Shown here: piece by piece, positions 1-60,576 of the stretch | Layout of the letters: every line of letters begins with the position of its first letter | Position numbering within the stretch: position 1 is the stretch's first letter | Translations under genes and position numbers: made by a program | Notes under the pieces: model-generated | Told to the model about the DNA's origin: nothing | What the model saw: the letters and a program-made list of their open reading frames with translations, nothing else | The model's database searches: none | Assembly (NCBI GenBank): GCA_965204745.1 | Contig: OZ242010.1 | Coordinates: 5,418,116-5,482,115, forward strand | Source of the DNA: Candidatus Latescibacterota bacterium | GTDB taxonomy: Bacteria > Latescibacterota > UBA2968 | Length of the DNA: 64,000 nucleotides | Direction of reading: 5' to 3'

Positions 1-34
1 GACGCCTACGACAAAAATCGATACAAAAATTTAT

Positions 35-1453
35 GTGGTACAACCGGGGGATTCGCTGACGAAAATCGCCGATCAGTTTTCCATGAGCGTGATCGAACTC
101 AAGCAACTCAATGGCCTTACGTCGAATCGCATTCACCCCGGCCAACGCCTCCGAGTGCGCGCTTCTTCTACGCAACGACCACAGGCGCGCCCACCTTCTG
201 CCCAGATAAAAAATATAGAATACGTGGTGCAACCGGGGGATTCGCTGACGAAAATCGCCGATCAGTTTGACATGCACGTTGACGAACTCAAGCGACTCAA
301 TGGCCTTACGTCGAATCTCATTCGCCCCGGCCAACGCCTCCGCGTGCGCGACCTGTCTCCTGGCCGCTCATCTTCTGGGCGAGAAAATCGCGTTCAACCT
401 TCTTTTGGCGAAATGGAATATGTGGTAAAACCGGGGGATTCGCTTTCTAAAATCGCCACGCGGTTTGCCATTGATTTGGCGGCACTCAAACGCGCCAATG
501 GCCTCAGATCGGATCGCATTTATGTGGGGCAAAAGTTAAAGATCCGGACGCAGGCAAAAGAAATCGCGGCGCCCAATGGCCCGTATTATTTTTTTCAGCC
601 CAAAGCGACCGTGCAACGAAGCCGGAATTATCGGGAAGAACCGAAAACAAAGCCGATTGAAGATTATCGAAATGCCCACAATTTGCTACGCGGTTTCAAT
701 GCGGGGATCGATTTGCAAATGCGCCGAGAGGGGCGTAAATCACAGCCGTTAAAAGGATGGCGCGTTGTGCTTGACCCGGGGCACGGAGGGCGCGATCCGG
801 GCGCGATTGTTTCCAATGAAGATGGCAACAACAACCCGGTATATGTGGTTGAGGACGAATATGTGTACGATATTGGATTGCGGCTGTACCAAAAGCTGAG
901 ACTCGCCGGTGCCGCGGTGGAAATGACGGTGGTCAGTCCGAATCATCTCATTCGAGACAATGATCCTGCCGCGAAGACGTTCGTACACGAGCAAAATGAG
1001 GTCTATAACGATGAAGCCTACAATAGACGGAACAGTTTTTCAGTGCGCCCGGGGCTTAGCAACATCACGCAACGGGTCAAAATAGCCAACCGGTTTTTCC
1101 AGGGCGCAAGACCGGGACAGACCCTGTTTTTATCGCTCCATGCAGACAACAGCCCCGGTCGCCTCAAAGGGCCTATGGTTATTTATTGGGGGCGGCAGGG
1201 CAGAATCGATTCGCGGTCTCGAGCTTTTGCACGGGTTCTACAAAAAGCACTCGAGCGGTCGGGTGTACGCTCGCAAATTGGGGCGCGCAATCTGGCGGTG
1301 TTGCGGAACAATTCGGCGCACGCAGAAGTTCTGGTGGAAGTACGCAATGTACACGACACCGGCGAAGCCTATGCCTTGCGCTTCCACGACAAGCGCGAGG
1401 AGGATGTAGATCGCATTTTCCAGGGGATACTCAATTACGCAAAGCAACGGTAA
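35..1453 (+). CDS. LysM-repeat N-acetylmuramoyl-L-alanine amidase (Amidase_3); 5'-partial, frame open to the window edge
   Basis: Three LysM repeats (YVVQPGDSLTKIA...LN.L.S..I..GQ.L) followed by amidase motifs LDPGHGG, SLHAD and LVEV. Confidence 0.9.
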   Translation: MVQPGDSLTKIADQFSMSVIELKQLNGLTSNRIHPGQRLRVRASSTQRPQARPPSAQIKNIEYVVQPGDSLTKIADQFDMHVDELKRLNGLTSNLIRPGQRLRVRDLSPGRSSSGRENRVQPSFGEMEYVVKPGDSLSKIATRFAIDLAALKRANGLRSDRIYVGQKLKIRTQAKEIAAPNGPYYFFQPKATVQRSRNYREEPKTKPIEDYRNAHNLLRGFNAGIDLQMRREGRKSQPLKGWRVVLDPGHGGRDPGAIVSNEDGNNNPVYVVEDEYVYDIGLRLYQKLRLAGAAVEMTVVSPNHLIRDNDPAAKTFVHEQNEVYNDEAYNRRNSFSVRPGLSNITQRVKIANRFFQGARPGQTLFLSLHADNSPGRLKGPMVIYWGRQGRIDSRSRAFARVLQKALERSGVRSQIGARNLAVLRNNSAHAEVLVEVRNVHDTGEAYALRFHDKREEDVDRIFQGILNYAKQR

Positions 1454-1573
1454 GGTGAGACGGGAGAGGTAAGAGGTAAGATGGGATTTTAGCCATGAGC
1501 GGGGTACAACTGGCGATAGATAGTTCAAAGGCACAAAGCATATAGGGGTGCGGCTACTGGATTAAAATGTGCG

Positions 1574-1612
1574 AAAAAAAATAATAGCCCGAGTTCCTTG
1601 CGAACCCGGGCT
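1574..1612 (-). terminator. Rho-independent terminator between convergent genes
   Basis: Stem AGCCCGAGTTC/GAACCCGGGCT with an A-run on its left (U-tract on the minus strand). Confidence 0.6.
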
Positions 1613-1692
1613 TGTGCTTTATGTCGCGTCTAAAAAAAAAATAGAGAAGTATGTCTCCCGTGTAGGCTATGTCTGTGCGGGTAGGGGACGGG

Positions 1693-3270
1693 TTACATCC
1701 CCCACACCTCGATCTCCACTCCGCTGTCCAATGCTCGGCGATCTCGAAATATCTTGTCCCGCCAACGCCGATCCTCGCGGCGGTCAAAGATCACCAAGTG
1801 CCCCGCCTCTGCATCGCAGCGATCCATGTACTCGAAGGTCTGTTCCAGGCCCTCAGCGATGGTCCGTTCCAAAGTCTTGCGGAGCACTTTGCACTCGATG
1901 ACGAATTTGCGCTCTCGCTCGGCCTGGGGCCAGACGATGAGCAAATCAGTACGCAGACGGCCCAAGCCATACTCGCGCTCGATGCGCCCGCCGCTGTTCA
2001 TGATCCTTTGCAAAAACGCCTGCAACAGCAACTGGGGGCCGGCCTCTTGATACGCGAATCGCTTGACCCAATGCTCGGAGTGTTCGCGGAAGAAGGTTTG
2101 GAACGCGGTCAGCAATTTGACCACATCCAAACTGCCATCAGCGTTGACGTACCAGACCGTTTCCTGATTGAACTCCTCTTGTACCACCCATGTCAATTCG
2201 CGGGGAACGACTTCTGCGTAGATCGGGTTGGCGATGCGGATCGGACGATCTCGCGTCACGAGCCCGAGATCCTGTACATACTCCAAATCGCGATCCGTAA
2301 AATGGCGTTCCTCGCCACCGCTCAACAGCGGTTCAACCACGCGTTGCACCCGCTTCTCTTTGAGTTTATCGGTCAACTGGTCGAGATGTGTTTCGCGGCG
2401 CAAGATGAGTTGTTCTTGCGCTCCGCGGATGTCGTCCTCGGTGATCGGATCGATCCGCGCCTCTGTGGCTTCATCCTTGAAGCAGGTCTCGTAAGCCAGC
2501 GCGTTGACCAGCCATGGTTGCCCCTGTGTTTGTGTCCAGATCAATTCCATCGCCTCGGGCGTGAATACCTGACCCGTCTCCTCGGTGTGTTGCACGAGCA
2601 AGGCCCGCACCTCGTCTTGCGAAAAATCGCCCAAGCGCAACGATTGCGCCTTGATGTTAAATGCACTGCCCCCGGTAATGACCGCATTTTCTGTGGTGGA
2701 TTGGATGCGATAATCGCGCACGTCGCGCACCCCGCATAAGACGACGCTCTGCGGAAACCCCTTTGGGCGTAGGTCATAGCCGGCGCGCAACTGCCGCAAC
2801 ACCGCCAGCAACGAGTCGCCGATCAGCGAATCGATCTCGTCGATGAGCAACACCAAGGGCTTCGGATCAGCTTTTGCCCAGCGTGTCAATGTTGCATACA
2901 GCGCAGCACCCGGCCCGGTTTCGGCGAGAATGCCGGGCCAAACCTCGTGCAAAAATTCGTCGTCTAATATCAAACTGGCCCGAATTGCCAATGTCGCCAG
3001 AATGGTGCGCGTCACTTGTTCCACATCTTCGCGCATCGCCTGTCCGCTTTCGACATTGACGTACACGCAGCGGTAGCCATCCTCTTGGTTGAGCAAATCG
3101 CACAGGGCCAGTAGCGCAGACGTCTTGCCCGTTTGCCGGGGGGCGTGCAATACAAAATAGCGTTTGTCCCGGATGATTCGGCGCACCTCGGCGAGATTTA
3201 GCCGTTCCAAGGGCGGGATGCAGTAGTGGTCTTCAGCCACGACCGGGCCGGTGGTGTTGAAGAAGCGCAT
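1693..3270 (-). CDS. AAA-like ATPase with C-terminal PD-(D/E)XK-like nuclease domain
   Basis: MRFFNTTGP start, Walker A APRQTGKTS, Walker B LLIDEID, C-terminal RTDLLI...VIECK; RBS GAGGAG. Confidence 0.85.
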   Translation of the reverse strand: MRFFNTTGPVVAEDHYCIPPLERLNLAEVRRIIRDKRYFVLHAPRQTGKTSALLALCDLLNQEDGYRCVYVNVESGQAMREDVEQVTRTILATLAIRASLILDDEFLHEVWPGILAETGPGAALYATLTRWAKADPKPLVLLIDEIDSLIGDSLLAVLRQLRAGYDLRPKGFPQSVVLCGVRDVRDYRIQSTTENAVITGGSAFNIKAQSLRLGDFSQDEVRALLVQHTEETGQVFTPEAMELIWTQTQGQPWLVNALAYETCFKDEATEARIDPITEDDIRGAQEQLILRRETHLDQLTDKLKEKRVQRVVEPLLSGGEERHFTDRDLEYVQDLGLVTRDRPIRIANPIYAEVVPRELTWVVQEEFNQETVWYVNADGSLDVVKLLTAFQTFFREHSEHWVKRFAYQEAGPQLLLQAFLQRIMNSGGRIEREYGLGRLRTDLLIVWPQAERERKFVIECKVLRKTLERTIAEGLEQTFEYMDRCDAEAGHLVIFDRREDRRWRDKIFRDRRALDSGVEIEVWGM

Positions 3271-3283
3271 GGCGAGCGTCTCC

Positions 3284-4402
3284 TCATTTTAGATTCTCGG
3301 GATTGAGTCCCTGCAGGTCTTCGGCGATGAAACGGCCGTCTTTGCGAATGCACGCGTCGTCGAAGTGGATTTCCCCGCCGCCGTATTCCGGGGTTTGGAT
3401 GAAGACCATATCCCAATGTACGGAGGATCGGTTGCCGTTGTCCGCGTCGTCTTGATAGGCGTTGCCGGGCGTGAAGTGGAATGATCCCGCTATTTTTTCG
3501 TCGAAGAGAATGTCGAGCATGGGCGAGGTGATATAGGGGTTGAAGCCAATGGCAAATTCCCCGATGTAGCGCGCGCCTTCATCCGTGTTGAGAATCGCGT
3601 TGAGTTTGGCGGTGTCGCTCGCGGTCGCGTCTGTGATTTTGCCATCCCGAAAGGTCAACCGAATATCCGAAAACGGCGTGCCGTGATAAATGGTGGGCAC
3701 GTTGAACCGGATATGCCCATTGACAGAGGTTTTGACCGGGGCCGTGAAACACTCGCCGTCGGGAATGTTGCGCGAGCCAGTGCAGGTTCGCACCCCGATA
3801 TCTTTGATGCTAAACGACAAGTCCGTATCTACCCCCATGATATGCACGCGGTCCGTTTGTTCCATGCGCTTTTTTAAGGGCGCGACGGCCTGGGCCATTT
3901 TGCCGTAGTCGAGCGTACACACGTCAAAATAAAAATCCTCAAAGGCTTCGGTGCTTTGCCGCGCCTGTTGCGCCATCGAAGGCGTGGGCCATCGCAACAC
4001 CACCCATTTGGTTTTCGGCACGCGGATGGCAAAATGCACTGGGTTGAGCCAGTGCTTTTCGTACACATCCATTGCCGCGCTGGAGACATCCGAGAGTTCT
4101 GCGATGTTGCGACTGCCGCGCAACCCAATATAGACATGGGCGCGTTGCATGCGGTGGGCTTCATACGCGCCTATTTTTCGCATGGTGGTGACATCGCCTG
4201 CGCGGATGAGTTCGCGTTGGATGCGGGTGTTCTTGATGGACACCTGCGGGATGCCGCCCACATCGCGCACTTTGCGAATCAGCGCGATGAGCATATCTTC
4301 GGGCATGTCGTAGCCTTCGATGAGCACGGTTTCACCCGGTTGCACCTGCGTGGAATGATGAATCAAGACGTCGGCGAGTTTTTCCAATCGGGGGTCTTGC
4401 AT
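3284..4402 (-). CDS. Aminopeptidase, M29 (AmpS/aminopeptidase II) family
   Basis: MQDPRLEKLA start with RBS AAGGAG; motifs NIPDGECFTAP, GEFAIG, FDEKIAGSFH, SSVHWDMV. Confidence 0.93.
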   Translation of the reverse strand: MQDPRLEKLADVLIHHSTQVQPGETVLIEGYDMPEDMLIALIRKVRDVGGIPQVSIKNTRIQRELIRAGDVTTMRKIGAYEAHRMQRAHVYIGLRGSRNIAELSDVSSAAMDVYEKHWLNPVHFAIRVPKTKWVVLRWPTPSMAQQARQSTEAFEDFYFDVCTLDYGKMAQAVAPLKKRMEQTDRVHIMGVDTDLSFSIKDIGVRTCTGSRNIPDGECFTAPVKTSVNGHIRFNVPTIYHGTPFSDIRLTFRDGKITDATASDTAKLNAILNTDEGARYIGEFAIGFNPYITSPMLDILFDEKIAGSFHFTPGNAYQDDADNGNRSSVHWDMVFIQTPEYGGGEIHFDDACIRKDGRFIAEDLQGLNPENLK

Positions 4403-4837
4403 GGGGTCTCCTTTGCGACTATTGTTGGCGGTTAAAAAAAATAACACATGATAGACTTGCAAGCCATTCTTTTGTCACCCCACCTCCGGCCCCTCCCCGA
4501 GACGGAGAGAGGAGAAGTGATTCCCCATTCCTCTTATACTAAATTGATTTTCTGTTGACCTCATGCGATATGCTACCAGTCTGTGATCCCCTTGATGTAG
4601 GGAAATTTTGTGGTTATTGACGCGCATAATCACGTTTGTTATCGCGATTTGAATTGGGCATGGACACGGTATTTGCCGCCGAGTGAGCATATCGCACGCA
4701 ACTATCGCGTGGTTAATCCGGCCGATGCGTTGCGCTTGGTCCCTTTGGAAAGTCCGTGACATCGGGCAGTGTCACGGTTATTTTTAGATAGACTTTGACA
4801 GCCGTTCACATCAACCCCAAAACGAAAGGAGATCGCG

Positions 4838-5107
4838 ATGAGTGCAGAATTGATTGGCATTTTGACGGTGGGCGTTGCGATCATCGCCGTCGTTGCGGTG
4901 TTGTTTCAACGCCTTGACAGTCGCATTGACCTTTTGGAATCGCGGCTTGAAAAGCGTCTCGACCGGTTGGAAACGGGCATGGTGGATATACGCGAACGGC
5001 TGGTGCGCGGTGAAACCAAAGTCGATAGCCTCGAGCGATGGGCATTCCAGGGCATGCCCGAACCCCTGACTATACCACCCGCATCGCAGGCGGCGAAATC
5101 CTCTTAA
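4838..5107 (+). CDS. Small membrane-anchored coiled-coil protein
   Basis: RBS AAGGAG; N-terminal hydrophobic helix then heptad pattern RLDSRIDLLESRLEKRLDRLE. Confidence 0.75.
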   Translation: MSAELIGILTVGVAIIAVVAVLFQRLDSRIDLLESRLEKRLDRLETGMVDIRERLVRGETKVDSLERWAFQGMPEPLTIPPASQAAKSS

Positions 5108-5142
5108 AAAATATCCGGTCTGATCGATGAGGAGGTCATGAA

Positions 5143-5922
5143 ATGGCACTGTCCGACCACATGCACTGGTCGTTTCAATACGACGGGAGAAGCCAGAGGC
5201 CGCATTTTTGCAACCAGTTGATGGGTGTTTTGCGTCGGGCGGAGCGAGCGCGGGGTGGCGATAGGTACGCGATTTTGCCGAATTACTGGAAGGGGTACAA
5301 CCGCGCAACCGCGATGGCGAATGGGGTCGATCTGGCAATCGGCGAGGTCGCGATCAACAGAAGGCGCGAGGTGTCGGGGAACTGGCGTTACGACGTTCGG
5401 GTTTTGAATGCGACGAGTGGTGAAAATTTGCACTTTGACTTTTGTTGCGCGGACGATGACGTTCGCACCTTGTCGGACACCTGGCGCGTGCGGGCGATCA
5501 ATGGCGCGGGGGACGGCTATCGCACGTTCACCTGCGAGGGGCACATGACGGATCGACGAGAGGTCGCGCTCGTGGTCAATGGCGTCACATTGCCCGTCGG
5601 GCGTTTTGAGCTGTCGCAAGCCGTGACGTGTAACTGGGCGTTGTTCGACGCAATCCCCCATCTGGCCCATCGCCTAAAAGCGTTAGGCGAGCGGGTATCT
5701 CTGGGGATTTTAGAAGATTTGGAAAAAGTGCGCGCGCCCGCATCTATCGGCTTTTTGGAAGACTGGGTTATGCCACTTGACGACAGCGCGTTGGAACTCT
5801 CTGGTTTTTTCGTCTATGGCGCGGGCATGTTGCCATCGTATTGGTGGGTTGATCAGCAGGAGCGAGTGGTGATCGCCTCCACGACATTCCAAACCTTTGT
5901 GCTAGAAGGAGGCGCGGCATGA
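5143..5922 (+). CDS. Hypothetical protein, translationally coupled to a sulfatase
   Basis: RBS GAGGAGG, 259-aa ORF, ATGA overlap with the next gene. Confidence 0.75.
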   Translation: MALSDHMHWSFQYDGRSQRPHFCNQLMGVLRRAERARGGDRYAILPNYWKGYNRATAMANGVDLAIGEVAINRRREVSGNWRYDVRVLNATSGENLHFDFCCADDDVRTLSDTWRVRAINGAGDGYRTFTCEGHMTDRREVALVVNGVTLPVGRFELSQAVTCNWALFDAIPHLAHRLKALGERVSLGILEDLEKVRAPASIGFLEDWVMPLDDSALELSGFFVYGAGMLPSYWWVDQQERVVIASTTFQTFVLEGGAA

Positions 5923-7886: not shown

Positions 7887-9440
7887 ATGGACGCACCAGA
7901 CTACACGTCACTCGTGCCGCACTACGCGTTTCCAACCGCGCTGGCGAAACAGCGCGAGGCACTTGCGACCAATCCGTTGTTGCAGCGGATGAAGGACGCG
8001 CGGAAGGGATATGCGGGCGATCCGCACAGGCCCATCTATCACTACGTGAATCCCGAACACACGCTCAACGACCCCAATGGGCTTTGTTTTTGGCAGGGCC
8101 GATGGCATTTGTTTTATCAGGCGTATCCCCCCGAAGACCCGCGCCAGCACTGGGGCCATGCGATCAGCGATGATTTGATCCACTGGGAGGATTTGCCCTA
8201 CGCGATTTATCCGAATCCGGAGCGATGCTGTTTTTCGGGGGCAACGCTCGTGGAAGAAGACCGCGTGATCGCCATGTACCACGGCACAGAAGTCGGCAAT
8301 ATGGTGGCGGTGTCACATGATCCCCTGTTGTTGAACTGGGAGAAAGTGACCGGACGCGCCGTGATACCGATGAAGAATCCGGATGGCTCTGCGCCGCCCT
8401 ATCGGGTATTTGATCCGTGTATCTGGAAAAAGGGCGCGTTTTATTATTCGCTTTCCGGTGGCACATTGCCAGGACCGGGCGGCAAGCGCACGCGGGCAAA
8501 TTTTTTGCTCCGCTCGCCGGATTTGGCAACTTGGACGTATTTGCATCCGTTTGTGGAAGACGACCGCTTTACGCTGGTGGGCGACGATGGCGCGTGTCCC
8601 TATTTCTGGCCCATTGGCGACCGCCACATCTTGCTTTTTTATAGCCACATGAGCGGCGGGCAATATCTGCTCGGGGATTACGATACCGCCCGCGACAAGT
8701 TCGTCGTGACCGCGCATGACAAATGCAATTTCGGCCCCTCCGGCCCCTGCGGGGTCCACGCGCCTTCGGCAACGCCCGACAGCGAGGGCAATATCATCGC
8801 GATTTTCAACATGAACCCGGGAAAGCCGACAAAGAATTGGAATCAGATTATGACGTTGCCCCGCAAGTTGACGCTGGTGGGCGAAGAGGAGTTGCGGGTC
8901 GAGCCGGCAGGAGATGTGGCGTCGCTGAGGCGCGATCACCGTGAGGTGGCGGGGATGACGCTTGCGGCCAATCAGGAGGTGGTGCTCGACGGTATTCGGG
9001 GCAATGCCATGGAGATCGAAGCGGAGATCGATCCCAAAAACGCGCCGATGGTCGAGATGAATGTGTTGCGGTCGCCAAACGCGGAAGAGGTGACGCGCAT
9101 CCTGTTTTTCAAGGATCGCGGGTTTAGAAATCGGGCGTTGAACACGCAGAAGAGTTTGATCACCATCGACTCGTCTCGTTCTTCCATTTTGCCCGACGTG
9201 CGGACGCGCGCGCCCGAGACCGGGTCGGTTTCTATCGCGCCGGATGAGACCCTGAAGTTGCGCGTGTTCGTGGATAAGAGCGTGGTGGAGGTGTTCGTCA
9301 ATGGCAAACAATGCGTGGCCTTGCGCGTGTATCCCGGGCGTGAAGATAGCGTTGGCGTTTCCCTGCGGTCACAAGGCCAAGACAGCGAACTCATTTCGCT
9401 CGATGCGTGGCAGATGGAAGATATTTATGCGGGTCAGTAG
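7887..9440 (+). CDS. Glycoside hydrolase family 32 (beta-fructofuranosidase-like)
   Basis: LNDPNG, HLFYQ, WGHAISDDL, FSG, FDP and C-terminal VFVDKSVVEVFVNG. Confidence 0.93.
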   Translation: MDAPDYTSLVPHYAFPTALAKQREALATNPLLQRMKDARKGYAGDPHRPIYHYVNPEHTLNDPNGLCFWQGRWHLFYQAYPPEDPRQHWGHAISDDLIHWEDLPYAIYPNPERCCFSGATLVEEDRVIAMYHGTEVGNMVAVSHDPLLLNWEKVTGRAVIPMKNPDGSAPPYRVFDPCIWKKGAFYYSLSGGTLPGPGGKRTRANFLLRSPDLATWTYLHPFVEDDRFTLVGDDGACPYFWPIGDRHILLFYSHMSGGQYLLGDYDTARDKFVVTAHDKCNFGPSGPCGVHAPSATPDSEGNIIAIFNMNPGKPTKNWNQIMTLPRKLTLVGEEELRVEPAGDVASLRRDHREVAGMTLAANQEVVLDGIRGNAMEIEAEIDPKNAPMVEMNVLRSPNAEEVTRILFFKDRGFRNRALNTQKSLITIDSSRSSILPDVRTRAPETGSVSIAPDETLKLRVFVDKSVVEVFVNGKQCVALRVYPGREDSVGVSLRSQGQDSELISLDAWQMEDIYAGQ

Positions 9441-46264: not shown

Positions 46265-47566
46265 TTATTTCAAAACAGAGGCCTGATACCGCCCGCGAGG
46301 CAAGAGGCGGCGGGCATTGTGGTGGCTGAGTTTGACTTCCATGCACACGTCATTGCCTTTGTAGTCCGTGTGCAAAATTTCGCCGATGCGGTAGAGTTCG
46401 GACAGGAGTTTGCCCTCGCGTTGCGGGATTTGAACTTGGAGGGTCAGGCGGTCGCCCTCGAGGTGGTTGTAGATGGCCCAGCGCAGGTCGTCGAGGCCGT
46501 CGCCCGTTTCAGCGGAGATCCACACCGCGTCTGGATAGGTCGTTGCGAGGTGTTCGCGTCTGACCGAGTCGTGCAACAAGTCGCTTTTGTTGAACACCAT
46601 CATGGTCGGCAGGGCCGCCACGTCGAGTTCGCAGAGCACGTCGATGACCGTGGCGATGTGTTCTTCACAGGCCGGATGGCTGGCATCGACGAGGTGGATC
46701 AGCAGGTCCGCGCCGATAGCCTCTTCAAGCGTGCTGCGAAATGAGGCGACCAAATGGTGGGGGAGTTTTTTGATGAATCCGACCGTGTCGGAGAGGAGCA
46801 TCTCCCGGTTGTAGCCGAGGGAGACGCGCCGCGTGGTGGAGTCCAGCGTGGCAAAGAGGCGGTTTTCGATGGGGACATCGGCGCCGGAGAGGGCGCGCAT
46901 CAGGGTGGATTTGCCCGCGTTGGTATAGCCGACGAGGGCTACGCGAAAGAGGTCCGCGCGTTGTTTGCGGGCAATTTCGCGCTGTTTGGCGATGCGGCCG
47001 AGGGCGCGTTTGAGAACCGTGATGCGGCGATGCGTTGCGCGTCTATCCACTTCGAGCTGGGTTTCGCCCGGCCCGCGCGTGCCCACGCCGCCCGTGCCTC
47101 CGGTGCCGCCTGCTTGGCGCGACAGGTGCGTCCATTGCCGGGTCAATCGGGGCAACATGTAGATGAGTTGGGCCAACTCGACTTGGGTTTGCGCTTCGCG
47201 GGTCTTGGCGCGGCTGGCAAAGATGTCGAGGATGAGCCGGCTGCGGTCGATGATTTTGACTTCTATCAGGGTTTCGAGATTGCGGGTTTGCGCGGGCGAG
47301 AGGTCTTCGTCAAAGATGACGACCTGGGCGCGGTGTTCTGCGACTCGCTGGACGAGTTCTTCGGCTTTGCCGCGGCCAATGAGATAGGCGGGGTCCTTGT
47401 GCTGGCGTTCCTGAAGCACTTTTTCGGCGACCACAACCCCTGCGGTGTCCGCCAAGAGCGCGAGTTCGTCGAGGGTGTCTCGCGCTTCGCCGAGTGAGAC
47501 GCCGGGCAGTGCGAGGCCGACGAGGATGCCCCGCTCAGGAGCGCGTTCCTTTTTCAAGTCGTGCAT
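46265..47566 (-). CDS. hflX: GTPase HflX
   Basis: GPGETQLEVDRR, GYTNAGKST, LFATLD, DTVGFI, NKSD. Confidence 0.96.
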   Translation of the reverse strand: MHDLKKERAPERGILVGLALPGVSLGEARDTLDELALLADTAGVVVAEKVLQERQHKDPAYLIGRGKAEELVQRVAEHRAQVVIFDEDLSPAQTRNLETLIEVKIIDRSRLILDIFASRAKTREAQTQVELAQLIYMLPRLTRQWTHLSRQAGGTGGTGGVGTRGPGETQLEVDRRATHRRITVLKRALGRIAKQREIARKQRADLFRVALVGYTNAGKSTLMRALSGADVPIENRLFATLDSTTRRVSLGYNREMLLSDTVGFIKKLPHHLVASFRSTLEEAIGADLLIHLVDASHPACEEHIATVIDVLCELDVAALPTMMVFNKSDLLHDSVRREHLATTYPDAVWISAETGDGLDDLRWAIYNHLEGDRLTLQVQIPQREGKLLSELYRIGEILHTDYKGNDVCMEVKLSHHNARRLLPRGRYQASVLK

Positions 47567-47594
47567 AGCAAAAGTCTCTCAAAGTTGCAATGAA

Positions 47595-47804
47595 CATTGA
47601 AGTGAATCGAGGCAACCAAGCGGTACTTGTTACCGGCGATATTGAACACGACAAATTCTCCGACTTTGTCAGCCGAAGGAAAGGTGCGGCGCAATCGTGC
47701 AAAACTGTGAAATTGAGTCTGTCGCATGATCTTGAACCAGCGACTCAACGGCTCCTGACTGGCGGGATGCTGTGCCCAAAACACCCGGAGGGCATGATGT
47801 GCAT
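47595..47804 (-). pseudogene. higB: HigB toxin remnant (frameshifted N-terminus, truncated C-terminus)
   Basis: MHI... then FWAQHP...W...LRRTFPSADKVGEFVVFNIAGNKYRLVASIHFN; lacks the usual TH.EY tail and has no higA. Confidence 0.75.
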
Positions 47805-47923
47805 TTATTCAATACGCTTTCGTTGCCGATGGCGAGATCAGAGTATTGGGTCTTGATTTTCAGTCACGGCCTCTTATATTTTAATAGCAAATGGATATGA
47901 CCTTAAGCACAAGGATATTTGTT

Positions 47924-48148
47924 ATGGGGATCGCTAACTTGAAAGTCGAACTTCCCTTCAGTCTTTCTGGAGAGGAGGCAAAAGTTTTTCTCGCCATCAA
48001 ACTCTATGAAGTTGGCAAAGTGTCGCTTGGTCAGGCAGCAAAAATCGCTGGACATTCCAAACGCACCTTCATGGAGATGCTCGGACGCCATCGCGTTCCC
48101 GTCTTTGATTATTCTCCCGAAGAATTGCGGCAGGAGATCTGCCCGTGA
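47924..48148 (+). CDS. UPF0175 family protein (putative antitoxin)
   Basis: LAIKLYEVGKVSLGQAAKIAG.S...F.E.L. Confidence 0.87.
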   Translation: MGIANLKVELPFSLSGEEAKVFLAIKLYEVGKVSLGQAAKIAGHSKRTFMEMLGRHRVPVFDYSPEELRQEICP

Positions 48149-48594
48149 ACGAGCGCATCGCAACAGATAGCACATGTTTGATTGCGCTTGAACGAATCGG
48201 CCATCTCGAGATTCTGCCAGCCCTTTTTGAGCATGTCTTAATCCCACCGGCTGTGGCACGAGAATTTGGCATCTCCTTCCCGTGGTTAAGGGTAGAGAGC
48301 GTTTCTGATCAAACGCTAATTGTCGCATTGAAAATGATGATTGATGATGGCGAAGCAGAGGCCATTGCCTTGGCCCAAGATCAGAAATGCCGAATTATCT
48401 TGGATGACCGACAGGCACGCAGTGTGGGCAGAAACATGGGGCTTAGGGTGATTGGCACAGTCGGTATTTTGATTCTCGCTAAGAAAATGAAAATTCTATC
48501 CGCCATCAAGCCCGCGCTTCAAAATTTGGATGATACCGGATTCTATATCAGTGTTGCTTTGAAGAAAGAAGCTCTGCGCCTCACAAAAGAATAA
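48145..48594 (+). CDS. DUF3368 PIN-domain protein (putative toxin)
   Basis: DSTCLIAL, IPPAV, DGEAEAIALA, LDDRQAR, GTVGIL. Confidence 0.88.
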   Translation: MNERIATDSTCLIALERIGHLEILPALFEHVLIPPAVAREFGISFPWLRVESVSDQTLIVALKMMIDDGEAEAIALAQDQKCRIILDDRQARSVGRNMGLRVIGTVGILILAKKMKILSAIKPALQNLDDTGFYISVALKKEALRLTKE

Positions 48595-48667
48595 ACATAG
48601 AGAAGGTAAAACTCATATTTGTTTTAGGTGCTATACATTTTGCTATACATTTTAAGATGCAGAAACC

Positions 48668-48721
48668 AATGGGCGAACTGTTTTGGGGTTTTGCGAAGTT
48701 TAACAGTTCGCCCATTTTTTG
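48668..48721. terminator. Inverted repeat / bidirectional terminator between convergent genes
   Basis: AATGGGCGAACTGTT ... AACAGTTCGCCCATT followed by a T-run. Confidence 0.65.
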
Positions 48722-48757
48722 TTTGTCGAACACATTGAGGCAAAACTGCCCTGTGGA

Positions 48758-49507
48758 TCAAATTTCGGTTTTGCCTTGGAGGGAGAGGAGTTGATCGCGC
48801 AACTCGGCGGCGCGCTCGAAGTCTTCATGGCCCACGGCTTCGCGGATTTGGTCGTGCAAATCCTGTGACCGGGATTTGGGGCGGTCGCGGCGAATCTCGT
48901 CTGCCCACTCTTGGAGGAAGGCGATTTCTTCGCTGTCTTCGATGAGGTCGTGCCGATCAAATTCCTCGAAAAAGGATTGGAGCTCGTCAATGCCCGCGTC
49001 GATTTTTGACAGGGCCATGTCGTAGGATTCGCGCTCGAGGTGCATCAACACTTCGGCGCGCACGCGATGCCCAATGACAAAGGGACGGTAGTGTTCAAAG
49101 GCCAGCCGGTCTTCCTCCTCCTCTGCGTATTCTTTGACAAAGTCGAAGAGTTCGAGGTTTCTTTCAGCGTCCTTTTTCGCGTTGCGGTAGTCGCCGATTT
49201 CGAGAAAGCTGATGCGGCGATGGTAGTACTGAAGGGCTTCCATTTGCAGGGCCATGCAGGTTTCCGTATCGAGCGAGAAGTTTTTCGCCCTCGCTTTTCG
49301 CGCCTGAGCTTGGTAATAGTGCAAGAGCGATTCATAGCCATAGGGATTTTGACCGTCAGGGCGACCGATAACATCCATTTGCAAGATGCCCATTTCAATG
49401 CGGAGTTGGATTTTTTTTCGTCCGTCCAGTCCCGTGATTTTGCGAACACACAGTTGACCTGGCTCACAGGGCCAGGTGTCCAGAAGAGGCTGAATGTCCT
49501 TATTCAT
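48758..49507 (-). CDS. UvrB/UvrC-motif (UVR) containing protein
   Basis: IQLRIEMGILQM..GRPDG; C-terminal AV.HEDFERAAELRDQL. Confidence 0.88.
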   Translation of the reverse strand: MNKDIQPLLDTWPCEPGQLCVRKITGLDGRKKIQLRIEMGILQMDVIGRPDGQNPYGYESLLHYYQAQARKARAKNFSLDTETCMALQMEALQYYHRRISFLEIGDYRNAKKDAERNLELFDFVKEYAEEEEDRLAFEHYRPFVIGHRVRAEVLMHLERESYDMALSKIDAGIDELQSFFEEFDRHDLIEDSEEIAFLQEWADEIRRDRPKSRSQDLHDQIREAVGHEDFERAAELRDQLLSLQGKTEI

Positions 49508-52673: not shown

Positions 52674-52698
52674 GGCTTAATCATTTTTGGAAAATGCC

Positions 52699-53955
52699 AT
52701 GGCCAGAAAATTTGATATTCCAGTCTTTTACAAGAGCCAGATCATTTCCCGCGTGAAAAGGGCGCGGCAGTTGGCGGACCCCAAAAAGCGCGATTTGCAA
52801 CCGTCCGTGCTGGATTTTGGGCCTGTGCGGTTTTTGTTGGCGCGGCATTTTGGGTTTTGTTTTGGCGTGGAAAATGCCATTGAAATCGCGTATCAGACCT
52901 TGGATGCGTGCGCGGATCGGCGCGTGTTTTTCCTCAGCGAGATGATTCACAACCCCCAGGTGAATGCGGATTTGCAAGCGCGCGGGGTGCGATTTATGTT
53001 CACGCCTTCGGGGGAACAACTCGTTCCATGGGACGTGCTCAAGCCCGACGACATCGTGGTGGTGCCCGCATTTGGTACGACAGTGGAAATTCAAGCGGAG
53101 TTGGACAGGCGGTGCATCGACCCGTATCAGTACAATACCACCTGTCCATTTGTGGAAAAGGTGTGGAAGCGCGGCGCGCAACTCGGGGCGGGAGATTATA
53201 CAGTGGTCATCCACGGGAAGGCCGCGCACGAGGAGACGCGGGCCACGTTTTCGCACACGGTTCAGAATGCGCGAGTCGTGGTGGTGCTCAATGTGGAAGA
53301 GGCACGTCTGTTGGCAGATCTGATTCGGGGCACATGCGACCTCGGGGTTTTTGAGCGGCATTTTCGGCACAAGTGCTCAGCGGGGTTTGACCCTGCGCGG
53401 CATTTGGCTCGCATTGGCGTGGTGAATCAGACGACGATGCTGGCCGCCGAGACGCACGAGATTGCGCGGGTCATCCGCCGCGCCCTCGTCGACCGGTACG
53501 GGGAAGACCACATCGCGGATCATTTTGCCGATACATCGGACACGCTTTGTTATGCGACCAATGAAAATCAAAACGCGACCTACGCGCTGATCGAGCGAGC
53601 CGCGGACCTCGCGCTGGTGGTGGGCGGGTACAATTCTTCCAATACGTCTCATATCGTAGAGTTGTGCGAAGAAGCCATGCCCACGTTTTTTGTGAAGGAC
53701 GCGGAGGAGTTGATTTCAGAACGCGAGATTCGACACTTTTCCCCGGCGTCTCAAGCGGTGGCGACATCCGCGCATTGGTTGCCCGATAAGCCGCGCGTGG
53801 ATATCGCCCTGACCTGCGGGGCCTCGTGTCCGGATGCAGTGGTGGATGGCGTGTTGCTGCGCGTGCTGTCATTTTTCTCCGATGTGCGGGAGGTGGATGA
53901 GGTGCTAGCCCCTTATGTTGCCGACCCGCTCCCGGCCCTTAAACCGTCAATTTGA
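52699..53955 (+). CDS. ispH: 4-hydroxy-3-methylbut-2-enyl diphosphate reductase
   Basis: FGFCFGV, IHNP, PAFG, TTCPFV, HEET, NQTTM, TLCYAT.ENQ, SSNT, GASCP. Confidence 0.95.
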   Translation: MARKFDIPVFYKSQIISRVKRARQLADPKKRDLQPSVLDFGPVRFLLARHFGFCFGVENAIEIAYQTLDACADRRVFFLSEMIHNPQVNADLQARGVRFMFTPSGEQLVPWDVLKPDDIVVVPAFGTTVEIQAELDRRCIDPYQYNTTCPFVEKVWKRGAQLGAGDYTVVIHGKAAHEETRATFSHTVQNARVVVVLNVEEARLLADLIRGTCDLGVFERHFRHKCSAGFDPARHLARIGVVNQTTMLAAETHEIARVIRRALVDRYGEDHIADHFADTSDTLCYATNENQNATYALIERAADLALVVGGYNSSNTSHIVELCEEAMPTFFVKDAEELISEREIRHFSPASQAVATSAHWLPDKPRVDIALTCGASCPDAVVDGVLLRVLSFFSDVREVDEVLAPYVADPLPALKPSI

Positions 53956-54153
53956 TTCGCGCTCGGTTGCAGACCGAGAATTTATTGGGCAAGCATGGTT
54001 TAAGGGGTTAAATGAATAAGTTTTGTCGTGTAGCATGGGATTTCTGGAAAAAATAAGGAAGGATAAATAGAAATCAATTTGGTATTAGGTACTATCGTAG
54101 GGGGGACAACGCAAACGCAATGCAGATCACAAAAACGATATGTGAGGCGAAAA

Positions 54154-56334
54154 ATGAATAATTTGTTAAATCAGGAAGTAGCAGACTTGAAAGAAGAAGC
54201 CGCTGAAGAAGCGGGAGGAGAATTGTCGTCCTATATTGACGAGACGACCATGGTCGGCGATTTGTTGTCTCTTGACTATTTGGAGGCAACAGTTCTTGTC
54301 CATGATGCGCTGAGACAGGAGGTGGGAGGTCTACCAATGGGGTGTTTCCTGTTTGCTACCCGGATAGACCCGGAAACCAAGCCTAGCGCAGACAAAGAAG
54401 ACACAGCACTCATCTTGCTTCGCGTTATTGGACATGCGCCTTTGCCTAATCAACAGGAGACAGACGCTTGGCGATATGATGCAGCGCAACGTTCTATTGA
54501 TTCTCCTGCACAATGGGATGCTGACAACAAGACGGACCAGTTCACGCTCAACCAACTGCGCCATGCAGGGGTGCGTTGTAGCGTGTTGGGCACTTTTCGC
54601 TATGTCCAAGAGGACGATAAGTGGAAGCCTACTTTTGGTGCTGATATTTCCAATTTCTATTCTGGGCAAGGAATGAAAGTGTACAAACCTATGGGCAAGG
54701 CATTAGAAACCATTGTCAACTTTACCAAGCAGATGGGCAACAAACATCCGCTTGCAGGAAAGTCCGTTCCAGTTGGGAGGGTTCGCTATGCCTCCAGTGA
54801 GATTGCTGTTGACGCTAAACGTGAAAATGTCCTGGTCCATATCGAGCCGACAGATATGTTGGCGCGGCGCACTGCGCTTTTTGGAATGAGCAGGAGCGGC
54901 AAGTCAAACACCATCAAAACGGTAGCCTCTGCCATATTCGATTTGCGTAATAAAATTGAATCGAAAAAGGGGCGTGTCGGTCAACTGATTTTTGATGTGA
55001 ATGGAGAATACGCGAATGACAATCCACAAGATGAAGGATGTTTGCGTAATATTGGATTGGACGATGTTGTAACCTATGGACTTTTTGAGCATCCCAACGA
55101 TGAAGGACGACGCTTAATCAAACTGAACTTCTTTGGTGAAAATATCAGAGACTGGAAAAAAGAAAATGATGTTAGAGTTTCGCTTGATATGCTTTTCGCA
55201 GGGAAAGAAGTAATTAACGAACATCTCCAAAGGTCAGCTAATGTTCCGCAATACGTCAGTAGATTTATCAATACGAATATAGAACCGCCGTCGGATAATT
55301 GGACCTGGAGCACTCAAACTCGCTATCGCCGTAATATCACAGTGTATAGGGCTATCCTTGCCGCATCTAATTTCAGCATACCATCCAATCTACCAGAGGC
55401 GGATATTCAGGGACTTTTTAGGAAAGAATTAATAGAGAGCATGAAATCCACTGAAGATCCCAAATACATAAGTGCGGCCAACAAACTACAAAAAACAACC
55501 GTTTCTTGGAATGAATTGTACCAAGCGATAACGGTTTTGCAAGAATTTGTTATCGGTGGTAGTAGGCAAGGGACAGGGCATGCGGAATTTCAGAAATTCA
55601 ATCAGTGGTATCAAAACAAAGATGGATCTGGTGATCCCTGGAATGATGATACATTGAACGGTTTGCTATCCCTTGTGAGTTGGGGAGGTGGGGTTGGCAG
55701 AGTACGCGAGTTACAAGAGCGGCACGATCCGAATGTAGGATCCGATTATTCAACCCAGATAGTTGATGAACTCGTTGATGGCAAACTGGTTATTGTTGAT
55801 CAATCAATTGGTTCGCCGACTGAAATTGAGCACACTTCTGAACGCATCATGTGGGAAATCTTTAATCGTCAAAGGCAAGTATTCACGGATCCGCCGCGTA
55901 GCCAAAGTGGTGAACTTCTGCGGGATGAAGATGGCAACATTATACCACCGCCTGATGTCATTGTGTATGTGGAGGAAGCACATAATTTGCTTCCCTCGCA
56001 AAATGCCAAACTGGACTCGATATGGGCGCGTGTAGCCAAAGAAGGCTCCAAGTTTCATATCGGACTGGTGTACTCCACTCAGGAGCCAAGTTCTATTTTG
56101 GCGAATATCCTAAAAAACACCGACAACTGGTTTGTGGCGCATTTGAACAATCAGGACGAGACGCGAGAACTCAGGAAATACTACGATTTTGAGATGTTCG
56201 TCGACCAGATTCTCAAAGTGCCGGACACCGGCTTTTTGAGAATGCGCTGTTTATCCAATCCCTACATCGTACCCGTTCAGATCGACAAGTTTACAGCAAA
56301 GCCACCGAAGGACAGAGAAGGAAGGACGACATAG
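54154..56334 (+). CDS. herA: HerA/DUF87 family ATPase-helicase
   Basis: HAS-barrel-like N-terminus, Walker A GMSRSGKS, IFDVNGEY, Walker B YVEEAHN, AKEGSKF, STQEPS. Confidence 0.9.
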   Translation: MNNLLNQEVADLKEEAAEEAGGELSSYIDETTMVGDLLSLDYLEATVLVHDALRQEVGGLPMGCFLFATRIDPETKPSADKEDTALILLRVIGHAPLPNQQETDAWRYDAAQRSIDSPAQWDADNKTDQFTLNQLRHAGVRCSVLGTFRYVQEDDKWKPTFGADISNFYSGQGMKVYKPMGKALETIVNFTKQMGNKHPLAGKSVPVGRVRYASSEIAVDAKRENVLVHIEPTDMLARRTALFGMSRSGKSNTIKTVASAIFDLRNKIESKKGRVGQLIFDVNGEYANDNPQDEGCLRNIGLDDVVTYGLFEHPNDEGRRLIKLNFFGENIRDWKKENDVRVSLDMLFAGKEVINEHLQRSANVPQYVSRFINTNIEPPSDNWTWSTQTRYRRNITVYRAILAASNFSIPSNLPEADIQGLFRKELIESMKSTEDPKYISAANKLQKTTVSWNELYQAITVLQEFVIGGSRQGTGHAEFQKFNQWYQNKDGSGDPWNDDTLNGLLSLVSWGGGVGRVRELQERHDPNVGSDYSTQIVDELVDGKLVIVDQSIGSPTEIEHTSERIMWEIFNRQRQVFTDPPRSQSGELLRDEDGNIIPPPDVIVYVEEAHNLLPSQNAKLDSIWARVAKEGSKFHIGLVYSTQEPSSILANILKNTDNWFVAHLNNQDETRELRKYYDFEMFVDQILKVPDTGFLRMRCLSNPYIVPVQIDKFTAKPPKDREGRTT

Positions 56335-57663
56335 ATGCCCTACGAAAATGAGAGAGCCAGCGGAGACAGCTTGATATGGCTGGAAAACAGCCAAGCCTTG
56401 AAGGAGTTTGAGGGCACCATCCTTGTGAAGGCAGAGGATACGCCCGTAGAACCGCCGATACTTCAAGTGCCTCGCCGCAACTGGTATCCAAGGCGCGTCA
56501 TTGCCATTGATGGCTCTAATCTCATGCACCGCGTCAAAAATGGATTTCCCGGTGCAGCGGCTGGGTTGCTAATGACGTCGGTGGTGGCGATCAAACTTGA
56601 CCAACTGAAGAGCTTGGATGCGAATACTATTCCTCGCCCATCATTTTTTCGAGACATCGAAAAGGCTCATACTCTGGAAGCCGCAATGCCGGGGATAGGC
56701 GTTTTTCGCAAGGGTGTTGTTGATGATACTCCAATAAATTACTTCAGACACGAGACTTACGACACGCTGGCAAATGCTGCTATTGCAGACAATCACGAGA
56801 CATTGCTGGAAACCATGCGTGCCATTTGTAAAAATGTTGATTTCCAGTCACGAATTGATTGTCCTGCTGTAGGTTGTAAAAAAAAATATGAGCGCAAAGA
56901 AGCGGAATACACCTGTCATTGTGAACAGCGGGAGAAGATGTTTGAAACCGATATACTGCGTCTGCACGAATACTTTGACGGTGTTAGTACGGGAGGCGAG
57001 GCATTGGGAAGATTGTGTTCTGTCTTGGAAATTTTGATCCTGCTGAACATTTTGCGTTTCTTTGTAAAAAAATATCCCAAGTATCTTGAAGATTGTGCTT
57101 TTGTTTTAGATGGCCCCTTAGCCATCTTTGGTACGCCTGCTTCTATACTGCGTCCAATCCGCGAAGAATTAAAAAAATTAAACAGGGAAGCGCGTAAAGC
57201 CAATGGGACAGATATTGTCGTATTTGGCGTAGAAAAAACCGGGCGTTTTAAGGAACATTGGATACAACTGGATTGGCAGGATGGCGTGGGGCCGGGTGCG
57301 CGCTTTCCCGATCAAACTGTGATAGCCCTAGATGACGAGTATATCAAAAACAACATCGTTCCTAGCGATAAAAAGGGGAAACCTTTTGGTGAGGATACCC
57401 ATTTTGGTCGAGCCATTCTCTATAAAACCAATAAAGGAAAGCACATTGTCATTCATGTTGCTATGCTGAACGAACTTGCGGGAGATTTCAGCAACAACTC
57501 TCTAGAATGTTATCCCCGATTGAATGATATTCTCGATGTCACGGACCAGTTGGCAACCTATATGTATGAGGGCGGCTTCATGCCTTTGGTACGTGCCCAT
57601 GCCCATGCAGCTATCCCCTTAAAACGAGGAACAGACATCATCAAGAGTCTGCTGGAAGATTAA
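56335..57663 (+). CDS. nurA: NurA-domain nuclease with a Cys-rich insertion
   Basis: VIAIDGS, VLDGPL, GVEKTG, C-terminal AHAHA; starts immediately after the herA stop. Confidence 0.8.
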   Translation: MPYENERASGDSLIWLENSQALKEFEGTILVKAEDTPVEPPILQVPRRNWYPRRVIAIDGSNLMHRVKNGFPGAAAGLLMTSVVAIKLDQLKSLDANTIPRPSFFRDIEKAHTLEAAMPGIGVFRKGVVDDTPINYFRHETYDTLANAAIADNHETLLETMRAICKNVDFQSRIDCPAVGCKKKYERKEAEYTCHCEQREKMFETDILRLHEYFDGVSTGGEALGRLCSVLEILILLNILRFFVKKYPKYLEDCAFVLDGPLAIFGTPASILRPIREELKKLNREARKANGTDIVVFGVEKTGRFKEHWIQLDWQDGVGPGARFPDQTVIALDDEYIKNNIVPSDKKGKPFGEDTHFGRAILYKTNKGKHIVIHVAMLNELAGDFSNNSLECYPRLNDILDVTDQLATYMYEGGFMPLVRAHAHAAIPLKRGTDIIKSLLED

Positions 57664-58814
57664 TGAGCCGACAGGAATGGAAATTCAGTAACGCCCCCGG
57701 ACGTTGGGCTGGCTTCGGGCCATATTACGCGATGTTTCCCGTCAACTTTGCCAGGGATGTTGTAGAGACGATGTCGCCTAAAGGAGGACGTATCTTGGAT
57801 CCGTTTTGCGGACGCGGAACGGCCCCTTTTGTCGCTCAGGCTACTGGCCGCGCTTCGCTGGGCATTGATATAAACCCAGTCGCTTGGGTTTTCGCCAAAG
57901 TCAAAACTTCTCCTGAACCAGATACAGAAAAATTGTTGAATCGTTTGGAAAGTTTGAGACATGCAGTGCGCTCTGAAGATAAAAAGGCAGAAGTGGAATT
58001 TCAAAAATGGGCGTGGGCTGAAAAGATTTTGGGATTTCTGAACTGTGCTCAACGTGAATTGGACTGGCGAGAAAACATAACAGACAGAACATTGATGGGG
58101 TTTATTCTCGTACACCTTCACGACAGAGCTAGCTGTGGCATTAGCAATCAAATGCAAAAGTCGCGGGCAATGGGACCAGATTACGCTGTTCGATGGTGGA
58201 AAAAGAGAGAAATGTCCCCACCAGATATAGATCCTTATGAGTACTTTCTCAAGAGAATTCGTTGGCGTTACACCCATGGGGTCATAGACAACAGGCAAGC
58301 GACAGAGATAGCACGAGGCGACGCAGCGCAGATCCTTTCTGATTACCAAGCAGGTACTGAAACGATGTCAAAAAAAGAAAAAAGTTTTAGTCTTCTGTTC
58401 ACCTCACCGCCATACTTTAGCGTCACCGACTATCGCCAAGATAGCTGGATTCGACTGTGGATGCTCGGCGAGGGTCCGTCCTTACCTGACTGGAAAAAGG
58501 ACAAAACAATCGTCCGACAAGAATTTTATCACCAAATGCTATATGACGTTTTTTTTCAAGCGAGCAAACTACTCAAACCTTCTGGCGTTGTCTGGATACG
58601 GACTGATGCCAGAGCGTTCACAAAAAATACAACCCTGCAAATAATTCGCACGCTTTGGCCAAGAAGGAAATTGTTTATGAGATACGACCGGCCAGAAAAG
58701 CTCACCCAAACAGCGCACTTCGGAAATACATCTACCAAACCAGGGGAGATTGATTTTTTGCTTCCAGGTAGAATGCCCTTACCTCCCACCGCTTCACCTT
58801 GGGAACAGTTGTAA
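57663..58814 (+). CDS. DNA amino-methyltransferase (SPPY motif, probably N4-cytosine)
   Basis: PYYAMFP, motif I LDPFCGRGT, motif IV FTSPPY; TAATG overlap with nurA. Confidence 0.87.
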   Translation: MSRQEWKFSNAPGRWAGFGPYYAMFPVNFARDVVETMSPKGGRILDPFCGRGTAPFVAQATGRASLGIDINPVAWVFAKVKTSPEPDTEKLLNRLESLRHAVRSEDKKAEVEFQKWAWAEKILGFLNCAQRELDWRENITDRTLMGFILVHLHDRASCGISNQMQKSRAMGPDYAVRWWKKREMSPPDIDPYEYFLKRIRWRYTHGVIDNRQATEIARGDAAQILSDYQAGTETMSKKEKSFSLLFTSPPYFSVTDYRQDSWIRLWMLGEGPSLPDWKKDKTIVRQEFYHQMLYDVFFQASKLLKPSGVVWIRTDARAFTKNTTLQIIRTLWPRRKLFMRYDRPEKLTQTAHFGNTSTKPGEIDFLLPGRMPLPPTASPWEQL

Positions 58815-58953
58815 ATGCGAATTAGCAGAGTAGAAAGCGAGTAGGAAGCAAATGGCACACAGAGCCGCGTTCCCATATTGCTATCTCCCGCATTTTGCAT
58901 CTCAATTCCAGTCATCCTTTCACCCTGTAAATCCCGATCAAAACCCCGATTTC

Positions 58954-58982
58954 TTGACGCGACAGAGACGGGATGTTATATT
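58954..58982 (+). promoter_or_regulatory. Sigma70-type promoter of tgt-yajC-fmt
   Basis: TTGACG-17 nt-TATATT. Confidence 0.65.
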
Positions 58983-59012
58983 GGGCGGCGTTTCAGTTGG
59001 CGGTTGTTTTAA

Positions 59013-60576
<1,564 letters not shown>

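Follow-up and report, generated by a model that had tools for sequence, protein, structure and literature searches.

A mobile three-gene cassette pairing a TdpA-like ATPase and a NurA-fold nuclease with a DNA methyltransferase, a candidate methylation-based relative of TdpABC

The stretch of DNA analyzed here (the window; 64,000 nucleotides of contig OZ242010.1 from a Candidatus Latescibacterota bacterium) carries a compact cassette of three genes, which encode a HerA-like ring ATPase, a nuclease of the NurA fold, and an amino DNA methyltransferase (MTase). The cassette is a horizontally mobile, self-contained module that occurs in many phyla, archaea included, and among solved structures its proteins are nearest to TdpA and TdpB rather than to the HerA-NurA pairs of DNA repair. 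It is a real but uncharacterized system, a variant of the TdpAB-type theme in which a methylase is present, and it probably works, to judge by analogy, as a relative of the phage-defence system TdpABC that is based on methylation. On balance, the comparative data lead us to favor the view that it would be a methylation-gated motor-nuclease restriction system. The parts of the unit, with product lengths in amino acids (aa), are as follows.

54154-56334, + strand: herA-like gene, TdpA-like ring ATPase of the HerA/FtsK family, 726 aa
56335-57663, + strand: nurA-like gene, TdpB-like nuclease of the NurA fold, 442 aa
57663-58814, + strand: MTase gene, amino (N6-A/N4-C) DNA methyltransferase, 383 aa
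54105-54153, + strand: conserved leader at the head of the mobile unit, spanning about 49 nucleotides before the herA-like ATG, with similarity to the closest cassettes

The tight coupling and deviant composition noticed in the original prediction are both borne out. The nurA-like ATG comes directly after the herA-like TAG stop, the nurA-like stop and the MTase start share a TAATG overlap, and the cassette has a GC content of 0.461 compared with 0.563 in the remainder of the window. At third codon positions (GC3), its genes have values of 0.45-0.46, with 0.68 in ispH and 0.72 in tgt, the genes on either side. The herA-like gene is taken to start at the ATG at 54154, from which a GAGG-like ribosome-binding stretch can be read upstream within the leader; homologues align with the product from residue 3-5, numbered from this start, and an alternative TTG at 54079 would extend it to 751 aa.

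The first gene product is assigned by sequence to the HerA/FtsK family of ATPases. It contains a Walker A motif, GMSRSGKSN (residues 244-252), a Walker B motif, VEEAH (606-610), and a TQ sensor (642-643), and the residues G244, K250, S251, E607-E608, R626, and T642-Q643 are invariant among 32 aligned family members. Pfam DUF87 (PF01935) matches at E 1.9e-7 (31.8 bits against a cut-off of 23.2) and the HerA models of PADLOC at 4.7e-19 and weaker; the HerA models of NCBIfam match only in part, with HerA_antiphage at 1.9e-14 lying far under its 800-bit cut-off. TdpA is the best solved relative, both in a phmmer search of PDB sequences (8.4e-18) and with a profile of the ATPase family (2.5e-31, with the runner-up at 2.1e-16), and the two proteins have in common the Walker B sequence EEAHN and a block that reads AKEGxKYxIG. 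The same relative emerges from the AlphaFold2 (AF2) model, which has a predicted local distance difference test score (pLDDT) of 86.9: Foldseek places TdpA at E 6.9e-27 and TMt 0.73, compared with 4e-19 and TMt 0.60. In VIA-align, TdpA superposes with Z 30.0 and a root mean square deviation (rmsd) of 3.7 over 510 residues at 24% identity. Other HerA structures come within about 1.5 Z of this, but over 343-473 residues and at 13-19% identity.

For the nuclease itself, no Pfam match was obtained at E <= 0.1, PF09376 (NurA) included. Its identification as a NurA is based on its homologues and its predicted fold. Homologues at 46-53% identity carry PF09376 in precomputed annotation, and many of its 412 database relatives (about 50% identity) either carry PF09376 or bear the NurA name at source; the AF2 model (pLDDT 84.2, predicted template modeling score (pTM) 0.85) has the NurA fold. 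The best Foldseek match is TdpB (8wfd_G, E 4.6e-8), and in VIA-align TdpB reaches Z 20.4 with rmsd 4.0 and 306 of its 358 residues aligned, whereas the RNase H-like NurA structures 2ygk, 9x1m, 3taz, and 7f6d give Z 11.5-13.2, the repair enzymes of S. solfataricus, T. kodakarensis, and D. radiodurans scoring 13.2, 12.4, and 11.5, respectively. TdpB was not detected when the sequence profile of the nuclease was searched against the PDB; matches to apical membrane antigen in that search (E 0.43-0.59) were dismissed as chance level. Six residues (D59, E232, D259, K301, H308, and H422) are kept in all 30 aligned nucleases, and by analogy D59, E232, D259, and H422 are candidate catalytic residues. 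The Cys cluster CPAVGC...CHC that had drawn attention is indeed present, but it is not universal, with C176 found in 24, C181 in 21, C194 in 29, and C196 in 23 of the 30 sequences.

The third protein matches Pfam N6_N4_Mtase (PF01555) at 1.4e-16 (61.6 bits, cut-off 26.7) and PADLOC MTase_II at 1.3e-20. Motif I, DPFCGRGT (46-53), lies ahead of motif IV, TSPPY (247-251), with about 195 aa between them, and all 31 family members keep DPFxGR and TSPPY unchanged. As a general rule, an SPPY motif favors N4-cytosine as the methylation target.

Like the cassette, TdpABC consists of three genes, one for DNA modification, one for a ring ATPase of the HerA family, and one for a nuclease of the NurA fold. 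In this system of thermophiles, the subject of An et al. 2025 (Nat Chem Biol), a phosphorothioate mark reportedly blocks translocation and cutting by TdpAB. Among solved structures, TdpA is nearest to the ATPase and TdpB nearest to the nuclease by fold (TdpAB structures 8wet, 8wfd, and 8y1k). The two systems differ in the modification gene, which in TdpABC is the phosphorothioate-forming TdpC and in the cassette is a PF01555 amino-methyltransferase; because its third gene encodes a methylase and not TdpC, the cassette is not a member of TdpABC. The proteins also differ in size, TdpA having 586 aa compared with 726 in the cassette ATPase, and TdpB 358 aa compared with 442 in the cassette nuclease, which has a Cys-rich insert. 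Furthermore, whereas TdpABC comes from thermophiles, the carriers of the cassette are mostly records from non-thermophile lineages. TdpABC is tabulated as a phosphorothioate-based restriction-modification (RM) system in one source (table in PMC13223576), and a passage in another states that tdpC alone suffices for the phosphorothioate mark (PMC12914056).

The original prediction had set the cassette beside the HerA-NurA pairs of repair and the HerA defence systems with Sir2 or DUF4297 partners; these folds are close, but the nearest analogue, TdpABC, was overlooked. The repair pairs of S. solfataricus, P. furiosus, T. kodakarensis, and D. radiodurans comprise the same two folds, encoded by adjacent and coupled genes, and a ring-plus-nuclease architecture is probably common to these pairs and the cassette. 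A repair-type operon would be expected to be linked to Mre11/Rad50 and inherited vertically in the core genome, neither of which is seen for the cassette, which is accessory, mobile, and MTase-linked. Sir2-HerA (Nezha/Gao19) and DUF4297-HerA likewise pair a defence-type HerA hexamer with an effector (fold Z 25-29), but that effector is Sir2 or DUF4297 and there is no modification gene, whereas the cassette has a NurA-fold nuclease and a methylase. With Type I and III RM and with Dnd/Ssp, the cassette would have in common the logic of a modification enzyme combined with an ATP-driven translocating restriction machine, and a passage in PMC10853773 assigns a HerA/FtsK domain to DndH. Unlike those systems, it lacks an endonuclease of restriction endonuclease fold, a specificity subunit, and a superfamily 2 helicase.

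One genome per species was scanned with the nuclease alignment, giving 98 confirmed stretches from which 80 loci were kept, and partner genes were sought by tblastn in these 80 nuclease loci from other genomes. The MTase is found in 79 of them, with L080 as the exception. The ATPase accompanies the nuclease in 77, being missing at the decayed locus L007 and at L048 and L064, which lie at contig ends, and the order ATPase-nuclease-MTase is kept in 75 of 76 complete loci (L052 has the MTase first). There is no fourth gene in the unit, since 389 flanking open reading frames (ORFs; at most three per side) form no cluster larger than 4. Patristic distances are strongly correlated, with Mantel r of 0.94 for HerA-NurA, 0.81 for HerA-MTase, and 0.82 for NurA-MTase (60 rows; the observed r was reached in 0 of 999 permutations for each pair), from which it follows that the three genes travel and diverge together, with the proviso that physical linkage alone would give correlated distances, whatever the function of the genes. 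Against representative protein clusters at 50% identity, the nuclease profile finds 955 at E <= 0.001 and 371 at <= 1e-30. Two rare fused forms are on record in the protein database, a nuclease-MTase of 787 aa (P0271, corresponding to L013:7001-9361) and an ATPase-nuclease of 1159 aa (P0272); each is a single cluster and may be either a true fusion or the product of a lost stop codon in an error-prone assembly.

The distribution of the cassette is that of a mobile element. A FastTree phylogeny of the nuclease (60 rows, the window and 59 loci) carries 17 phylum labels with 26 label changes, and two archaeal copies are nested among bacterial ones. The 25 loci left off this tree were broken, contig-cut, without an MTase, or duplicate (L007, L011, L013, L015, L016, L018, L022, L025, L028, L030, L036, L043, L047, L048, L050, L051, L061-L066, L080, L097, and L099). 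The window copy clusters with records of Latescibacterota, Caldilineaceae, and Thermodesulfobacteriota at 77-88% protein identity. Of the 18 other genomes of its genus, only 5 were found to have the nuclease, at different sites; the same-genus copy with 88% nuclease identity lies elsewhere, 145 kb from the ispH of its genome, and a second subfamily, at 34-35% nuclease identity, is present in four same-genus genomes: G018 (L098), G010 (L099), G014 (L100), and G011. Homologues of the ATPase and MTase adjoin the nuclease in each of the four carriers, out of these five, that were fetched (G001, G010, G014, and G018), and the sequence divergence of the second subfamily suggests independent acquisitions. 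The GC content of the cassette is lower than that of its flanks by at least 0.04 in 13 of 16 loci checked.

The edges of the transferred unit can be drawn precisely. In blastn, the DNA of the closest cassettes (L001, L004, and L009) matches that of the window at 76-80% identity from 54105 (L001 and L009) or 54113 (L004) onward, and the match ends exactly at the MTase stop codon, 58814. The unit of 4.7 kb (54105-58814) thus has edges that coincide with the three genes.

Distant relatives (23-26% identity) were found in 5 of 72,556 plasmid records and 2 of 50,697 phage records, and a DNA MTase adjoins them in three of the four neighborhoods inspected. A haloarchaeal plasmid retains the order ATPase-nuclease-MTase. 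On a Deferribacter megaplasmid, the order is MTase-ATPase-nuclease, and the ATPase gene is split by an IS200/IS605 tnpA-tnpB pair. In two Vibrio prophages, the ATPase-nuclease pair stands beside an integrase with a D12-class MTase adjoining. In one of these (L103, PQ189371.1, positions 1-5750), the HerA/NurA-like pair lies between the integrase and the excisionase and the Dam-type (D12) MTase is on the opposite strand; the record flags only the MTase, as 'RM_Type_II__Type_II_MTases'. Insertions of about 1 kb interrupt several copies of the cassette (L022:4385-5377 and 8320-9382; L066:5815-7001; L104:3347-5126), the IS200/IS605 pair of the Deferribacter megaplasmid being one of them.

The decay of individual copies provides a further, if thin, line of evidence. 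In 83 loci whose intact or broken status was reviewed by hand, the MTase is broken in four, and in three of these HerA is broken as well; among the 75 loci with an intact MTase, HerA or NurA is broken in 11. This asymmetry (Fisher one-sided p 0.016, or 0.020 counting the uncertain L011) suggests, as a pattern of sequence, that loss of the MTase is tolerated mainly where HerA is also broken.

In essence, the mechanism that we favor, methylation-gated restriction, would run as follows. The MTase would mark host DNA, probably as N4-methylcytosine, given its SPPY motif and the general rule for such motifs. The HerA-like ATPase would assemble as a ring and thread DNA at the expense of ATP, and by analogy with TdpAB this ring and the NurA-fold nuclease would together degrade unmarked DNA, whether of phage or plasmid origin. 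Host methyl marks would stall or silence the motor-nuclease, as phosphorothioate reportedly does for TdpAB.

Several observations weigh against this mechanism. The main unexplained point is the sensing of base methylation by a ring that holds DNA by its backbone. The MTase stretch between motifs I and IV, the would-be target-recognition site, is as conserved as the catalytic core, with 17 of 41 invariant columns falling within it. The specificities of classical RM methyltransferases diversify, and the conservation of this inter-motif region indicates no such turnover in the cassette. The original prediction had called for a search for the three-gene unit in defence islands. The unit is conserved, but at the 80 loci most of the genes immediately next to it have housekeeping functions, and of 139 flank ORFs no more than 1-2 match any one defence family (Type III MTase, PtuA, ZorA, capP, PDC-S05, and others). 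At L080 (4611-10355), the most distant genome locus with 27% nuclease identity, there is no MTase homologue, and the genes that come after the pair encode an AAA_15/AAA_21 ATPase and a zf-BED/HNH protein; the copy on a Nostoc plasmid has an AbiTii protein in place of the MTase. On the strength of these two copies without a linked MTase, partners other than the MTase can serve the motor-nuclease pair. The decay asymmetry comes from small numbers, with error-prone assemblies as a confounder, and the breakage per gene (14, 5, and 4 for HerA, NurA, and MTase) fits the expectation from gene length (p 0.40). Finally, L099 (G010) has an MTase frameshifted near residue 302 and intact HerA and NurA, in what may be an assembly error. 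The conserved inter-motif region would nonetheless fit a common mark read as a roadblock. A more specific version, which we put forward tentatively and regard as possible rather than likely, is that the family uses a single, non-diversifying methyl mark and that the ring or the Cys-rich insert of the NurA reads the density of this mark and not a site.

Other explanations of the cassette can be weighed against the same data. That it is a trigger-activated defence of the abortive-infection type, in which the ring restrains the nuclease until a phage cue arrives and the MTase has a side role in limiting self-damage or in regulation, seems to us unlikely. Such a scheme would draw on the closeness in fold of other defence HerA proteins (8xau at Z 28.7, Sir2-HerA and DUF4297-HerA entries at Z 25-27), on the abortive-infection-type genes (AbiTii; AAA_15/21 with HNH) that adjoin the MTase-less relatives, and on the conserved inter-motif region, which argues against sequence-specific diversification in an arms race. 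It sits poorly with an MTase that is linked in all loci but one and co-diversifies with the ATPase and nuclease, and the modification-gated TdpA and TdpB are nearer than the trigger-activated systems, both in the profile search (E 2.5e-31 versus 2.1e-16) and in residues aligned (510 versus 439). Distinctly unlikely, in our estimation, is a selfish addiction or exclusion module, in which loss of the MTase would expose the chromosome to HerA-NurA, defence against phage would be incidental, and the main target might be competing plasmid or conjugative DNA. The spread across phyla of a small unit that is complete in itself yet carries no gene for mobility, the occurrence of relatives on plasmids, and the loss of the MTase mainly alongside a broken HerA are all features that such a module would show. 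Its biochemistry would be the same as that of methylation-gated restriction, so that sequence alone cannot tell the two apart; weighing against it, carriage beside the integrase of two prophages fits defence against superinfection.

Very improbable is a housekeeping role in repair, with HerA-NurA carrying out end resection as in Deinococcus and the archaea and the MTase co-transcribed by chance. The fold matches do include repair proteins (T. kodakarensis 9x1m, D. radiodurans 7f6d, and S. solfataricus 2ygk and 4d2i), and homologues are publicly annotated as 'DNA double-strand break repair nuclease NurA'. The classic NurA enzymes are nevertheless weaker structural matches than TdpB, by the Z scores given above, and occurrence within the genus is patchy, in 5 of 18 other genomes and at different sites. 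The composition is foreign, the nuclease tree mixes phyla, and the MTase is obligatorily linked. In agreement with the original prediction, no Mre11/Rad50-type gene was found among the ORFs scanned beside the cassette.

The comparison with named defence systems (PADLOC-DB v2.0.0) is consistent with a system that has so far gone without a name, as had been predicted: the trio matches none of those listed, and only the generic HerA and MTase_II models match it. Of the weaker hits, mad8 (2.4e-13) was set aside as scattered P-loop segments, HEC-08 (E 0.0081) as chance level, and DndH (7e-4 and weaker) as P-loop-only or chance-level matches. A full-text literature search, which covered few subscription journals, likewise found no publication on the trio; the passages it returned on HerA systems (in PMC10853773, PMC12839542, PMC11514479, PMC3417536, and bioRxiv 10.1101/2024.10.22.618286) deal with other systems. 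The TdpABC publication (An et al., pmid 39820821) or newer catalogues of defence systems may already mention it.

The surroundings of the cassette in the window are of a different character. Its flanking genes are as follows.

52687-53955: LytB/ispH, upstream flank
59058-60185: TGT/tgt, downstream flank

The upstream neighbors are Ldh_2, a MocA-type oxidoreductase, and LytB/ispH, those downstream are TGT, Fmt, and a Zn-peptidase, and, as the original prediction had it, there is no integrase among the 10 larger ORFs scanned between 47.9 and 64 kb. Host-like DNA ends upstream at about 53909 and restarts at about 58939. In all four relatives checked (G001, G016, G017, and G018), mocA-ispH is kept and tgt lies hundreds of kb off; because ispH and tgt are not adjacent in these genomes, the cassette sits at a synteny breakpoint and not at a simple insertion site, and no clean pre-insertion site was found in any of the four. 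A search of the flanks for direct or inverted repeats gave nothing larger than matches of chance size. Scans for promoters (10 versus 6.6 ± 2.9) and terminators (9 versus 6.2 ± 2.4) did not rise above shuffled sequence, and a search of Rfam over 53800-59200 gave no match at E <= 0.1.

Two short repeats and a further gene pair may be recorded here. The 36 bases that immediately follow the MTase stop (58814-58849) form a dispersed repeat, with no Rfam match; at least 39 more copies, which are 92-95% identical and occupy both strands, are scattered through the host genome (from a listing of 40 matches among 94 candidates), and it is also found in the relative G018. This repeat lies outside the transferred unit and is therefore the host's own, and the spot it marks may be prone to recombination. 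A stretch of about 50 nucleotides 3' of ispH (53954-54016), containing a stem-loop at 53962-53978, is multicopy in some relatives, with extra matches in G018 (11), G015 (11), G002 (7), and G004 (6) and one further copy in the window's own genome. At 47891-48594, a UPF0175 gene (85 aa) overlaps a DUF3368 gene (149 aa) in an arrangement that resembles a toxin-antitoxin module, and the pair lies within 47500-49000, a second part of the window with low GC content (0.48-0.49).

What is new in the present analysis are the exact boundaries of the unit, the asymmetry of its decay, the conserved inter-motif region of the MTase, and the presence of two subfamilies within one genus. Homologues of the three proteins are currently known under the public names 'double-strand break repair nuclease NurA', 'DUF87 protein', and orphan 'DNA methyltransferase', and because of these names a probable defence system is hidden from the tools used to find such systems. 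If the cassette is a methylation-gated restriction system, the TdpAB-type motor-nuclease would not be confined to thermophiles as a curiosity but would drive restriction throughout a widespread family in which base methylation replaces phosphorothioation. Restriction-modification would then gain a class with a mechanism of its own, and the question would arise of how a ring translocase senses a methylated base. If it is mark density that is read, the TdpAB-type machine would in general be able to read DNA marks of different chemistry, sulfur in the backbone in thermophiles and base methylation elsewhere, operating across at least 17 phylum labels and the archaea and providing restriction-modification without a sequence-specific endonuclease.

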